A DNA stretch of 64,000 nt from Escherichia coli (GTDB taxonomy: Bacteria > Pseudomonadota > Gammaproteobacteria > Enterobacterales > Enterobacteriaceae): NCBI RefSeq assembly GCF_013122565.1, contig NZ_CP053258.1. The stretch is one strand, 5' to 3'. Below are positions 18,001 through 24,000 of this stretch, piece after piece. Position 1 is the stretch's first letter. Every line of letters starts with the position of its first letter. The position numbers were made by a program.

Positions 18001-21000
18001 CAGCAATAGCTGGTTCTGCGGCCTGCCGGGCAACCCGGTTTCAGCGACGCTGACCTTCTATCAACTGGTACAGCCTTTGCTGGCAAAACTAAGCGGTAAC
18101 ACCGCCAGCGGCCTGCCCGCGCGCCAGCGCGTACGCACAGCGTCCCGCCTGAAAAAAACGCCAGGTCGCCTTGATTTCCAGCGCGGCGTGCTGCAACGCA
18201 ACGCCGATGGAGAACTGGAAGTGACGACCACCGGACATCAGGGTTCACATATATTTAGCTCCTTTAGCCTCGGCAACTGCTTTATCGTGCTGGAACGCGA
18301 TCGCGGCAATGTGGAAGTGGGCGAATGGGTGGAAGTAGAACCGTTTAACGCATTGTTCGGAGGCCGGTAATGGCGGAACTCAGCGATCAGGAGATGCTGC
18401 GCTATAACCGGCAAATCATTCTGCGCGGTTTTGATTTTGACGGTCAGGAGGCGCTAAAAGATTCTCGTGTGCTGGTAGTCGGCCTCGGTGGACTCGGCTG
18501 CGCAGCCTCGCAGTATCTGGCAAGCGCCGGTGTCGGCAACCTGACGCTGCTCGACTTCGACACGGTTTCGCTCTCGAATCTGCAACGCCAGACGCTGCAC
18601 AGTGATGCTACGGTCGGGCAACCGAAGGTGGAATCCGCCCGTGACGCCCTGACGCGGATCAACCCACATATCGCGATTACGCCAGTCAATGCACTGCTGG
18701 ATGACGCAGAACTTGCAGCATTGATTGCTGAACACGATCTTGTGCTCGACTGTACGGATAACGTTGCGGTACGTAATCAACTGAACGCAGGCTGTTTTGC
18801 CGCGAAGGTGCCGCTGGTTTCCGGCGCGGCAATTCGTATGGAAGGGCAAATCACGGTCTTCACTTATCAGGACGGCGAGCCTTGCTATCGCTGCCTTAGC
18901 CGTTTGTTTGGCGAGAACGCGTTAACCTGCGTAGAAGCAGGCGTGATGGCACCGTTGATCGGCGTAATTGGTTCGTTGCAGGCAATGGAAGCGATCAAAC
19001 TGCTGGCAGGTTATGGTAAACCGGCCAGCGGGAAAATCGTCATGTACGATGCGATGACCTGTCAGTTTCGTGAAATGAAACTGATGCGCAATCCGGGGTG
19101 TGAGGTGTGCGGGCAGTAATTGCCACCTCCAGGCCTGATAAGACGTGGCAGGCATCGGTGCACTCCGCCACGTCATCAGCAATTTATGAGGATGCAGAAC
19201 GTCCGGTTAAATCGACGTTCTGCCAAACGCTCCCTGCCAGTCCTGCTCAAACTTCGCCACAGCGGCATCAACCGCCGGATAGCTAATCATATGTTGTGCC
19301 ACATCCAGTGGCAGAGTAATTGATTCACATCCTGCCAGTAAGCAGTCCAGCGCCTGACGCGGGGTTTTGAAACTCGCGGCTAACACTTTCGCCCGCGGCG
19401 CATGCATTTTCAATAACTGGTGTAAGTCGGTCACAGTCTGAATACCGCTACCGCCCTGAGCATCAATACGATTAACGTAAGGCGCAACATATTCCGCACC
19501 TGCCAGCGCCGACAGCAGCCCTTGTGCTGCGCCATATACCGCGGTTCCCAGCGTCGGAATCCCTTCCGCTTTTAACATCTTAATCGCTGCCAGCCCCTCG
19601 GTGGTAACCGGAACTTTCACCACGATATCCGCAATAATAGAACGCAATTTACGTGCGTCATTCACCATCCCTTCAGCAGTGGTAGCCATTACCTGGGCAA
19701 ACAGACGCCCCTGACCGCCCATCGCTTCATGAAGTTGCGGAAGCACAACCTCCAGCGGTTTTTTACCCGCGGCGATAATGCTTGGGTTAGTGGTCACACC
19801 CGCCAGCGGAAAAATACGTGACAGCGCCTTCACCGCAACAACGTCTGAAGTATCCAGATACAGTTCCATAAACATCCTCAAAATGTACTTTTTGTCTGAA
19901 TGTAGACTATCACGGGAAAACTCTCTGAACAGTTGACGCACATCAATCTAACTTTCATTCGAAAGTATTTTAATGTTTGAACGAAACAGAGAGGCAACTA
20001 TGATTTTCAATATTCAGCGCTACTCGACCCATGATGGCCCCGGTATCCGCACGGTCGTATTTCTTAAAGGCTGTTCGCTGGGCTGCCGATGGTGTCAGAA
20101 CCCGGAAAGCCGCGCCCGAACGCAGGATCTGCTGTATGACGCACGACTGTGTCTGGAAGGCTGCGAGCTGTGCGCTAAGGCCGCGCCGGAAGTGATTGAG
20201 CGCGCACTGAATGGCTTGCTTATTCATCGGGAAAAGTTAACCCCGGAGCATCTGACGGCGTTAACCGACTGCTGCCCGACACAGGCGTTAACCGTGTGTG
20301 GGGAAGTGAAAAGCGTTGAGGAGATCATGGCGACCGTTCTGCGCGATAAACCGTTTTACGATCGCAGCGGCGGCGGCTTAACGCTTTCTGGCGGTGAACC
20401 GTTTATGCAGCCGGAAATGGCGACGGCGCTACTGCAAGCCTGCCACGAGGCCGGCATTCATACTGCGGTAGAAACCTGTCTGCATGTGCCGTGGAAATAT
20501 ATCGCCCCTTCTCTGCCCTATATCGATCTGTTTCTTGCCGATTTAAAACACGTCGCCGACGCGCCGTTTAAACAGTGGACCGACGGTAACGCCGCCAGGG
20601 TGCTGGATAATCTGAAAAAACTCGCTGCGGCGGGGAAAAAAATCATCATCCGCGTACCGCTGATTCAGGGCTTTAATGCCGACGAAACCGCTGTAAAAGC
20701 CATTACCGATTTTGCCGCCGACGAGCTGCACGTTGGCGAAATCCATTTCCTGCCCTACCACACGCTGGGCATCAACAAATATCACTTACTTAATCTGCCC
20801 TATGACGCCCCGGAAAAACCGCTTGATGCGCCAGAACTGCTCGACTTTGCCCAGCAGTATGCCTGCCAGAAAGGGTTAACCGCGACCTTACGAGGATAAC
20901 AACCATGACCACACTGAAACTGGACACGCTCAGCGACCGCATTAAAGCGCACAAAAATGCGCTGGTGCATATTGTGAAACCGCCGGTTTGTACCGAGCGC

Positions 21001-24000
21001 GCGCAGCACTATACCGAGATGTATCAACAACATCTCGATAAGCCGATCCCGGTACGTCGCGCGCTGGCGCTGGCACATCACCTGGCGAATCGCACCATCT
21101 GGATCAAGCACGATGAGTTGATCATCGGCAACCAGGCAAGCGAGGTTCGCGCCGCGCCGATCTTCCCGGAATATACCGTCTCGTGGATCGAAAAAGAGAT
21201 TGATGATCTGGCAGATCGTCCCGGTGCTGGTTTTGCGGTGAGCGAAGAGAACAAACGCGTTCTGCATGAAGTGTGCCCGTGGTGGCGCGGTCAGACCGTA
21301 CAGGATCGCTGCTACGGCATGTTTACCGATGAGCAAAAAGGTCTGCTGGCGACCGGAATCATTAAAGCGGAAGGCAATATGACCTCCGGCGATGCGCACC
21401 TGGCGGTGAATTTCCCGCTGCTGCTGGAAAAAGGTCTTGATGGTCTGCGCGAGAAAGTAGCGGAACGTCGCTCGCGCATCAATCTGACGGTGCTGGAAGA
21501 TTTGCACGGCGAACAATTCCTGAAAGCGATTGATATCGTGCTGGTGGCAGTCAGTGAACACATTGAACGTTTCGCTGCCCTGGCGCGTGAAATGGCCGCG
21601 ACCGAAACTCGCGAAAACCGTCGCGATGAACTGCTGGCGATAGCAGAAAACTGCGATCTTATCGCCCACCAGCCGCCGCGGACTTTCTGGCAGGCGCTGC
21701 AACTGTGTTACTTCATCCAGTTGATTTTGCAGATCGAATCCAACGGTCACTCGGTATCGTTTGGTCGTATGGACCAGTATCTGTACCCGTATTATCGTCG
21801 CGACGTTGAACTCAACCAGACGCTGGATCGCGAACACGCCATCGAGATGCTGCATAGCTGCTGGCTGAAACTGCTGGAAGTGAACAAGATCCGCTCCGGC
21901 TCGCACTCAAAAGCCTCTGCGGGTAGTCCGCTGTATCAGAACGTCACCATTGGCGGGCAAAATCTGGTTGATGGTCAACCAATGGACGCGGTGAATCCAC
22001 TCTCTTACGCGATCCTCGAATCCTGCGGTCGCCTGCGTTCCACTCAGCCTAACCTCAGCGTGCGTTACCACGCGGGAATGAGCAACGATTTCCTCGACGC
22101 CTGCGTACAGGTGATCCGCTGCGGCTTCGGGATGCCGGCGTTCAACAACGACGAAATCGTCATCCCGGAATTTATTAAACTCGGTATTGAACCGCAGGAC
22201 GCTTACGACTATGCAGCAATTGGCTGTATAGAAACCGCCGTCGGTGGCAAATGGGGCTATCGCTGTACCGGCATGAGCTTTATCAACTTCGCCCGTGTGA
22301 TGCTGGCGGCGCTGGAAGGTGGTCGAGACGCCACCAGCGGCAAAGTGTTCCTGCCACAAGAAAAAGCGTTGTCAGCGGGTAACTTTAACAATTTCGATGA
22401 AGTAATGGACGCGTGGGATACGCAAATCCGTTACTACACCCGCAAATCAATCGAAATCGAATATGTCGTCGACACCATGCTGGAAGAGAACGTGCACGAT
22501 ATTCTCTGCTCGGCGCTGGTGGATGACTGTATTGAGCGAGCAAAAAGTATCAAGCAAGGCGGCGCGAAATATGACTGGGTTTCTGGCCTGCAGGTCGGCA
22601 TTGCCAACCTCGGCAACAGCCTGGCTGCAGTGAAGAAACTGGTGTTTGAACAGGGCGCGATTGGTCAGCAACAGCTGGCTGCCGCACTGGCGGATGACTT
22701 CGACGGCCTGACGCACGAGCAGCTGCGTCAGCGGCTGATTAACGGTGCGCCGAAGTACGGCAACGACGATGATACTGTCGATACGCTGCTGGCTCGCGCT
22801 TATCAGACCTATATCGACGAACTGAAGCAGTACCATAACCCGCGCTACGGACGTGGTCCGGTTGGCGGCAACTATTACGCGGGTACGTCGTCTATCTCCG
22901 CTAACGTACCGTTTGGCGCGCAAACTATGGCAACGCCAGACGGACGTAAAGCCCACACCCCGCTGGCAGAAGGCGCAAGCCCGGCCTCCGGTACTGACCA
23001 TCTTGGCCCTACTGCGGTCATTGGCTCGGTGGGTAAACTGCCTACGGCAGCGATCCTCGGCGGCGTGTTGCTCAACCAGAAACTGAATCCGGCAACGCTG
23101 GAGAACGAATCTGACAAGCAGAAACTGATGATCCTGCTGCGTACCTTCTTTGAAGTGCATAAAGGCTGGCATATTCAGTACAACATCGTTTCCCGCGAAA
23201 CGCTGCTGGAAGCGAAAAAACATCCGGATCAGTACCGCGATCTGGTAGTGCGCGTCGCGGGCTATTCCGCCTTCTTCACCGCGCTCTCTCCAGACGCACA
23301 GGACGATATCATCGCCCGTACCGAACATATGCTGTAATCTCCTCAGCCCGGTAACGGTTGTTGCCGGGCGAAAATACTCATCCCATCGATATTATTTTAA
23401 TCCGAAATAAATTTGTGCTCCGCGTCCCATTGTCATTACACTGTGGCGGTTTGCATTCATTGTCAGGAGCACATCTATGAGCGTAAAAGTTATCGTCACA
23501 GACATGGACGGTACTTTTCTGAGCGACGCCAAAACGTACAACAATGAGCGTTTTATGGTGCAATATCAGGAACTTAAAAAGCGCGGCATTGAGTTCGTTG
23601 TCGCCAGCGGTAATCAGTATTACCAGCTTATTTCGTTCTTTCCTGAGCTAAAGGATGAGATCTCTTTTGTCGCGGAAAACGGCGCACTGGTTTACGAAAA
23701 TGGCATGCAGTTGTTCCACGGCGAATTAACCCGACATGAATCGCGGATTGTTATTGGCGAGTTGCTGAAAGACAAGCAACTCAATTTTGTCGCCTGCGGT
23801 TTGCAAAGCGCGTATGTCAGCGAAAATGCCCCCGAAGCATTCGTCGCACTGATGGCAAAACACTACCATCGCCTGAAACCTGTAAAAGATTATCAGGAGA
23901 TTGACGACGTACTGTTCAAGTTTTCGCTCAACCTGCCGGATGAACAAATCCCGTTAGTGATCGACAAACTGCACGTAGCGCTCGATGGCATTATGAAACC

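Follow-up and report, generated by a model that had tools for sequence, protein, structure and literature searches.

We examined a 64,000-nucleotide stretch of Escherichia coli DNA (contig NZ_CP053258.1 of assembly GCF_013122565.1), hereafter the window, whose positions 20000-23337 carry the gene pair ybiY-ybiW. We are confident that this pair constitutes an anaerobic two-component system, activated by FNR and repressed by YciT, that opens the ring of 1,5-anhydroglucitol-6-phosphate (1,5-AG6P). An earlier description of the window from its sequence (the original prediction) had recognized here a core-genome activase and glycyl-radical enzyme, flanked by fsaA and ybiV, as a second system resembling pyruvate formate-lyase (PFL) with no confirmed substrate, and had suggested an active-site comparison. 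The upstream gene, ybiY (20000..20899, plus strand), encodes the 299-aa radical S-adenosylmethionine (SAM) activase of YbiW, and ybiW (20905..23337, plus strand) an 810-aa glycyl-radical enzyme whose function as 1,5-AG6P ring-opening lyase is taken from the literature. In the list of open reading frames (ORFs), the first appears as 19973..20899 (+), followed after 5 bases by 20905..23337 (+, 810 aa). The ATG at 20000 is the annotated ybiY start and follows a ribosome-binding site, GAGAGG, located 6-11 nt upstream. A further in-frame ATG, at 19973, lies 27 bases before this start and would extend the ORF to 308 aa; it was rejected on the grounds that it sits in non-conserved sequence and precedes the inferred transcription start. 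Megablast retrieved the 20000-23337 interval from 5425 of the 5426 complete E. coli genomes, where its genes are annotated as glycyl-radical enzyme activating protein and glycyl radical protein. The pair is indeed core genome, and chance ORFs are excluded.

The YbiW of the window aligned gap-free over 810 aa with its K-12 counterpart at 99.3% identity, the six substitutions (E184K, S238N, M246I, Q259R, H474R, and D769E) being all conservative and outside the Cys and Gly loops, and alignment of YbiY with K-12 YbiY revealed 4 substitutions. The ybiW gene shares 97.1% of its nucleotides with that of K-12 and differs by 64 synonymous versus 6 nonsynonymous codon changes, which indicates that it is functional and under purifying selection within an intact ybiYW locus. 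YbiW also aligned end to end, with 1852 bits, with the crystallized E. coli protein (PDB 8id7 and 8yjn, 'Probable dehydratase YbiW'), while a crystal structure of its paralogue PflD is available as 8yjo. The entries 8yjn and 8yjo are reported to be substrate complexes.

Profile searches placed YbiW in TIGR01774 (PFL2-3; 1406 bits versus a cut-off of 678), a class that comprises glycerol, propanediol, and hydroxyproline dehydratases and choline lyase, and further matched it to the Pfam domains PF02901 (PFL-like; 697 bits, residues 11-671) and PF01228 (Gly_radical; 113 bits, residues 688-792). The motif RVAGYS near the C-terminus identifies the radical glycine as Gly786 (nt 23260-23262), and the Cys loop reads G440-C441-I442-E443, with Cys441 at nt 22225-22227 and Glu443 at nt 22231-22233. 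Cys441 aligned with Cys419 of PflB, with the Cys of PflD, and with Cys438 of propanediol dehydratase (5i2a); together with Glu443 and His165, it reproduces the Cys438/Glu440/His166 set of the latter enzyme. In PflD the loop is GCVE and a His likewise occupies the leaving-group/substrate site, whereas PflB and TdcE carry a Cys-Cys pair (C418/C419 in PflB) and, at that site, Arg176. Sequence identity to YbiW amounts to 25% for both PflB and TdcE and to 39% for PflD. The top non-self PDB matches of YbiW were, at 551 bits, the B12-independent glycerol dehydratase 1r8w and, at 505 bits, the diol dehydratase 5i2a, with PflB at 152 bits, and none of the substrate-specific NCBIfam equivalogs, PFL among them (TIGR01255; 160.6 versus 994.2 bits), came anywhere near its cut-off with this protein. 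The residue comparison, the PDB bit scores, and the equivalog scores below cut-off together indicate that YbiW is an eliminase-type glycyl-radical enzyme and not a formate-lyase. The suggested active-site comparison thus assigns to YbiW the dehydratase set (GC441xE443 plus His165) instead of that of PflB/TdcE, and 'PFL-like' stands as a description of the Pfam match but not of the chemistry. E. coli K-12 has four such large subunits, namely PflB, TdcE, YbiW, and PflD, which makes 'second' equally loose.

To follow these residues and the surrounding locus across species, we relied on a DNA-pattern scan for the YbiW Cys-loop peptide, with one genome per species, which yielded at least 120 loci from Enterobacterales and a few others; the counts given here and below refer to the matches listed, and the loci are phylogenetically related, so that conserved sites do not count as independent events. 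No variation occurs at His165 or Gly786 in the 69 orthologues that are 80-99% identical. Cys441 and Glu443 are invariant as well, but the search pattern demanded both.

YbiY exceeded the cut-off of TIGR02494 (glycyl-radical enzyme activases, PFLE_PFLC subfamily; 372 versus 174 bits) and remained under that of every substrate-specific activase model, including the PflA model TIGR02493 (170.7 versus 231.75 bits). Its CX3CX2C motif corresponds to Cys25/29/32 (nt 20072-20095) in a protein that matches Pfam Radical_SAM and Fer4_12, and its 'LSGGEP' aligned with 'ASGGEA' of PflA, the SAM-binding GGE motif. Alignment with PflA and PflC further uncovered a Cys-rich insert with Cys51/55/58 (CX3CX2C) and Cys91/92/100 that is a gap in PflA. 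These six cysteines would suffice for one full auxiliary Fe-S cluster; Pfam ferredoxin models found no match in the insert. An activase with the CxxxCxxC signature directly upstream of a glycyl-radical enzyme, as originally described, is therefore what both families and motifs support.

What has changed is the substrate. YbiW has been shown by others to convert 1,5-AG6P to 1-deoxyfructose-6-phosphate (Ma et al., J Am Chem Soc 2024, 146:26187, as summarized in PMC12441222, from which everything credited to that account here derives), and PflD to yield the same 1-deoxyfructose-6-phosphate from 1,5-anhydromannitol-6-phosphate (Ma et al. 2024 via PMC12441222). The same summary states that the phosphotransferase system (PTS) phosphorylates 1,5-anhydroglucitol and 1,5-anhydromannitol to their 6-phosphates, that the glycyl radical is required for the YbiW/PflD reaction, and that E. 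coli grows anaerobically, and many gut bacteria grow, on 1,5-anhydroglucitol via these pathways; 1-deoxyfructose-6-phosphate is described in it as 'further metabolized' (PMC12441222). The statement of the original prediction that no substrate had been confirmed is accordingly outdated by a publication of precisely the kind that it had named as capable of overturning it.

Judging from the conserved eliminase residues and from what the product is, the reaction would run as in the glycyl-radical diol dehydratases, but with the ring oxygen as leaving group in place of a hydroxyl. PTS uptake and phosphorylation of dietary 1,5-anhydroglucitol would supply 1,5-AG6P. YbiY, with a [4Fe-4S] cluster on Cys25/29/32, would reductively cleave SAM and take a hydrogen from YbiW Gly786, generating a stable, oxygen-sensitive glycyl radical that would move to Cys441 as a thiyl. 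This Cys441 thiyl radical would abstract the C2-H of 1,5-AG6P, Glu443 being the candidate base that deprotonates the C2-OH, and the C1-O5 ring ether would then be eliminated with His165 assisting the leaving oxygen. Return of the hydrogen from Cys441 to C1 would give an open-chain 2-ketone with a C1 methyl, that is, 1-deoxyfructose-6-phosphate. C2-H abstraction followed by C1-O5 elimination yields a 2-ketone and would thus account for a single product from both C2 epimers. FsaA may finally split 1-deoxyfructose-6-phosphate into glyceraldehyde-3-phosphate, which would enter glycolysis, and hydroxyacetone; both FsaA and FsaB are said to carry out this cleavage, with GldA reportedly reducing the hydroxyacetone.

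Transcription of the pair most likely starts within the 130-bp fsaA-ybiY spacer. This region contains an FNR box, TTGACgcacATCAA (19933..19946), centred 60.5 bp upstream of the ybiY ATG, which has one mismatch to TTGAT-N4-ATCAA and is identical in K-12. Boxes with at most 2 mismatches occur in 75 of 80 ybiY upstream regions (21 perfect and 42 with one mismatch), at 57-80 bp and mostly 60-63 bp from the ATG, apart from two outliers at 92 and 114 bp. Mismatches fall almost only at the innermost base of each half-site, and the four spacer bases vary freely, which argues for selection on the half-sites. The box is not new, since the supplements of Myers et al. 2013 (PMC3688515) list an FNR peak 'ybiY/fsaA' from chromatin immunoprecipitation sequencing (ChIP-seq) with the motif TTGATGTGCGTCAA, its reverse complement. 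The 19933-19946 sequence is probably a class II anaerobic FNR activator site. Boxes of this class are typically centred at -41.5, a spacing that would set the transcription start near 19981. A -10-like hexamer, TTTAAT (19969..19974, +), is conserved as (A)TTTAAT in an anchored alignment of 74 upstream regions. It was not among the calls of the generic scan for promoters and terminators, which gave no more sites than shuffled sequence; the only match of that scan near ybiY, at 19977-20004, overlaps the start codon and was discarded.

Between the FNR box and the -10 element lies the palindrome ACTTTC-ATTC-GAAAGT (ACTTTCATTCGAAAGT; 19951..19966), which, given a start near 19981, would span about -30 to -15. 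Few blocks of the spacer are as strongly conserved, the perfect CTTTC-N4-GAAAG core being present in 67 of the 80 ybiY upstream regions, and the palindrome is unique in the window at up to 3 mismatches. At up to 2 mismatches, the core alone is not enriched in the window (27 found versus 31 expected), and only its two perfect copies are informative, about 0.06 being expected by chance in 64 kb according to our own estimate. The other perfect copy in the 64-kb window maps to 36319-36332, in the glnQ-ybiO spacer, and ybiO is another reported YciT target (PMC8464067); that copy could equally be a terminator, since it also forms the stem of a hairpin that directly follows glnQ.

YciT, a DeoR-type regulator, yielded a strong peak at ybiY in the exonuclease variant of the ChIP assay (ChIP-exo), with a motif reported as palindromic (PMC8464067, 2021), and deletion of yciT raised ybiY, ybiU, ybiV, and fsaA by 7.7, 7.0, 2.2, and 1.8 log2 units, respectively (PMC8464067 supplement). 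The palindrome at 19951-19966 is probably the YciT operator, an identification based on its sequence for which our literature search found no published statement. Reg-Seq experiments showed that the ybiYW promoter is active only anaerobically and located YciT over the core promoter, with the footprint of an unidentified activator about 15 bp upstream of the YciT site and no mention of FNR (10.1101/2025.05.13.653802). The centre of the FNR box is 19 bp upstream of that of the palindrome, and the simplest reading is that this activator is FNR. The Reg-Seq preprint appears to have missed both the FNR ChIP data and the 2024 substrate paper.

The FNR ChIP-seq (2013), YciT ChIP-exo (2021), and Reg-Seq (2025-26) results fit one simple promoter model, in which FNR would switch transcription on anaerobically at 19933-19946 and the DeoR-type repressor YciT would hold ybiYW off, probably at the palindrome. 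No published statement of this combined FNR/YciT model was found in the literature search, whose scope did not extend to Ma et al. 2024. YciT co-represses ybiYW, fsaA, ybiV and, where carried, ybiU, probably through the conserved CTTTC-N4-GAAAG operator. Inclusion of ybiU in this regulon is likely because the gene keeps synteny with ybiV-ybiW in many genera and its level increases by 7 log2 units upon yciT deletion. Neither the FNR box nor the palindrome was found in the spacers of the K-12 pflD cluster, where both were looked for.

The genes around the pair are arranged as moeA-moeB, fsa (divergent), ybiY, ybiW, ybiV, and ybiT, and both neighbours named in the original prediction proved to be there. 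fsaA (19207..19869, minus strand) scored 449 bits against NF009296, matched Pfam TAL_FSA, and is annotated fsa in the matching E. coli record. ybiV (23477..24292, plus strand) encodes a Cof-type HAD-IIB sugar phosphatase (TIGR00099, 213 bits; Pfam Hydrolase_3) annotated as 'sugar-phosphatase YbiV'. A divergent FSA-type aldolase gene adjoins ybiY, across a spacer of 126-162 bp, in 58 of the 68 loci in which 900 bp or more of sequence precede ybiY, and this pairing is kept in Serratia, Rahnella, Buttiauxella, Cedecea, and Pantoea even though moeB, ybiV, and ybiU are not close by in these genera. The same combination of aldolase, radical enzyme, and activase recurs in the paralogous K-12 cluster gldA-fsaB-ptsA / frwC-frwB-pflD-pflC-frwD. 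In vitro, hydroxyacetone can act as the donor for FsaA, an enzyme whose physiological role was described as enigmatic as late as 2020 (PMC7767278). The fsa neighbourhood, the pflD cluster, and the use of hydroxyacetone are all consistent with an aldolase that takes the product of the radical enzyme, and we infer that FsaA is the next step of the pathway.

Eight non-Yersinia loci keep moeB, ybiY, and ybiW without fsa beside ybiY, namely L073 (Salmonella enterica subsp. diarizonae), L007, L037, L087, L090, L093, L099, and L105; the FNR box is kept with at most 2 mismatches in six of these eight, L007 and L093 having 3 mismatches. The ybiY upstream regions of L012 (Yersinia artesiana) and L116 have neither a divergent fsa nor an FNR box, and their palindrome is degenerate.

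Downstream of ybiW, a GC-rich hairpin that we read from the sequence, GCCCGGTAAC-GGTT-GTTGCCGGGC (23347..23370, plus strand), begins 10 bases past the stop codon. It lacks a T-run and was not called by the terminator scan, and it is possibly a weak terminator or an RNA-stability element. Between this hairpin and ybiV, TTAATCCGAAAT (23396-23407) has weak similarity to one of the two halves of the operator region at ybiY. The DUF1479 gene ybiU, which in K-12 lies between ybiV and ybiT, is absent from the window, and the spacer found in its place (24293-24491) carries REP-like (repetitive extragenic palindrome) repeats and is identical to the ybiV-ybiT spacer of strain LHM10-1; ybiU is present in 4249 of the 5426 complete E. 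coli genomes. The best match among these 5426 genomes reached 99.0% for positions 1-20000, 97.8% for 20000-23337, and 98.2% for 40000-64000, and the best-matching strains vary by segment: they belong to the O157:H7/O55:H7 lineage for 1-20000 and, in the other segments, are unrelated commensal or enterotoxigenic (ETEC) strains. The window probably derives from a Shigella or from a divergent or mosaic lineage of Escherichia that these 5426 genomes do not include.

Several points weigh against ybiYW as an FNR- and YciT-controlled system for opening 1,5-AG6P. The substrate assignment comes from one secondary account (PMC12441222) together with the names of PDB entries, and the PDB molecule name is still 'Probable dehydratase YbiW'. 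The residue roles proposed here come from alignment with glycerol and propanediol dehydratases instead of from a structure of YbiW with its substrate. An adjacent fsa is missing from 10 of the 68 loci. No PTS gene adjoins ybiYW in the window, which leaves the uptake step invisible at the locus. Finally, the 2025-26 preprint (10.1101/2025.05.13.653802) calls ybiYW functionally unannotated, an indication that the assignment is not yet widely adopted.

Among the alternatives, the one that fares best accepts this biochemistry and differs in the main role, which would be detoxification: 1,5-AG6P would be a dead-end analogue of glucose-6-phosphate produced by a promiscuous PTS, and ybiYW together with YbiV would relieve the resulting stress. 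The ybiYW genes of Yersinia enterocolitica are flanked by sgrR on one side and sgrS on the other, the regulator pair of sugar-phosphate stress (PMC2760817), a placement that makes sense for a substrate that is an analogue of glucose-6-phosphate, and it is two Yersinia loci (L012 and L116) that miss the usual fsa and FNR box. Co-repression of ybiV by YciT (PMC8464067), the absence of a dedicated transporter from the ybiYW locus, and the toxicity of 1,5-AG6P in human cells, which remove it with a dedicated phosphatase (PMC12441222), point in the same direction. The reported growth on 1,5-anhydroglucitol, however, means that the pathway yields carbon and energy (PMC12441222). We therefore regard detoxification as a possible main role that is less probable than not, with the reservation that the detoxification and carbon-source roles are not mutually exclusive.

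Very little speaks for YbiW as a dehydratase of small diols (glycerol or 1,2-propanediol) whose activity on an anhydro-sugar phosphate would be secondary. The Cys/Glu/His catalytic set is common to YbiW and the diol dehydratases, and the latter provide its top non-self PDB matches (1r8w, 551 bits; 5i2a, 505 bits), but all substrate-specific NCBIfam equivalogs score far under their cut-offs, the conserved partner is a sugar-phosphate aldolase and not a propanediol or glycerol utilization or microcompartment gene, the published substrate is a hexitol phosphate (PMC12441222), and the paralogue PflD resides within a PTS operon, all of which renders this option highly improbable. Weakest of all, and rejected on its Cys loop, Arg176 position, and hidden Markov model (HMM) cut-offs, is a third pyruvate/2-ketoacid formate-lyase that makes acyl-CoA and formate with YbiY as its PFL activase, as the K-12 RefSeq names 'putative pyruvate formate lyase' and 'PFL activating enzyme' and the Pfam PFL-like domain of YbiW would have it: YbiW is about 25% identical to PflB/TdcE, lacks the C418/C419 pair, has a His in place of PflB Arg176, and reaches 160.6 bits versus the TIGR01255 cut-off of 994, YbiY reaches 170.7 versus the PflA model cut-off of 231.75, and a different substrate is published (PMC12441222).

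With YbiW taken as a 1,5-AG6P ring-opening lyase, ybiYW enables fermentation of 1,5-anhydroglucitol by E. coli and by many Enterobacterales of the gut, according to PMC12441222; this compound is a glucose analogue of the diet and a clinical marker of glycaemic control. The significance of this use belongs to the 2024 publication. The names in public records ('putative pyruvate formate lyase', 'glycyl radical protein') have not caught up with the literature. The 6-phosphate is also toxic to human neutrophils in G6PC3/G6PT deficiency (PMC12441222). A rather speculative proposal, which we consider unlikely as a whole, concerns the surrounding regulon: YciT would sense 1,5-AG6P or 1-deoxyfructose-6-phosphate, YbiV would serve as a safety-valve phosphatase acting on 1,5-AG6P when oxygen inactivates YbiW, and YbiU would offer an oxygen-tolerant route for this same 1,5-AG6P. 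If so, YbiV would correspond in bacteria to human G6PC3, the repair enzyme. The DUF1479 domain of YbiU presumably adopts a 2-oxoglutarate/Fe oxygenase-like fold.

Compared with known systems, the pair is closest to K-12 YbiW/YbiY (b0823/b0824; PDB 8id7 and 8yjn), with which it shares the gene pair, lengths, motifs, 5-bp spacing, divergent fsaA, downstream ybiV, and promoter elements; the differences amount to about 3% of nucleotides, almost all synonymous, and to a lineage without ybiU downstream of ybiV. The ybiYW system is thus already known, and the allele of the window is slightly divergent and functionally unremarkable, the absence of ybiU being its sole departure from the K-12 arrangement. 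PflD/PflC (b3951/b3952; PDB 8yjo) shares with YbiW/YbiY the reported product, the GCxE loop, the His, the RVAGYSA motif, the Cys-rich activase insert, and an FSA-type aldolase gene, fsaB, in the cluster. However, PflD is 39% identical to YbiW, acts on the C2 epimer, and differs at positions that are invariant in YbiW orthologues among the matches listed (D163Q, H282S, S341F, and T455H), and pflD lies inside a dedicated PTS operon (frwCB, frwD, ptsA) beside gldA.

Glycerol dehydratase of Clostridium butyricum (1r8w) and propanediol dehydratase (5i2a) are, like YbiW, glycyl-radical 1,2-eliminases with the same fold and Cys/Glu/His set. In these enzymes a free hydroxyl leaves a C3 diol to give an aldehyde, whereas in YbiW the ring oxygen of a phosphorylated C6 anhydro-sugar would leave to give a 1-deoxy-ketose phosphate, and their genomic contexts differ from that of ybiYW. 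PflB and TdcE, with PflA, have in common with YbiW/YbiY the superfamily, the C-terminal glycyl-radical domain, radical-SAM activation, and anaerobic FNR control. They depart from YbiW in their Cys-Cys instead of GCxE, Arg176 instead of His, C-C cleavage with CoA, and an identity of about 25%, and PflA is devoid of the Cys-rich insert that YbiY carries.

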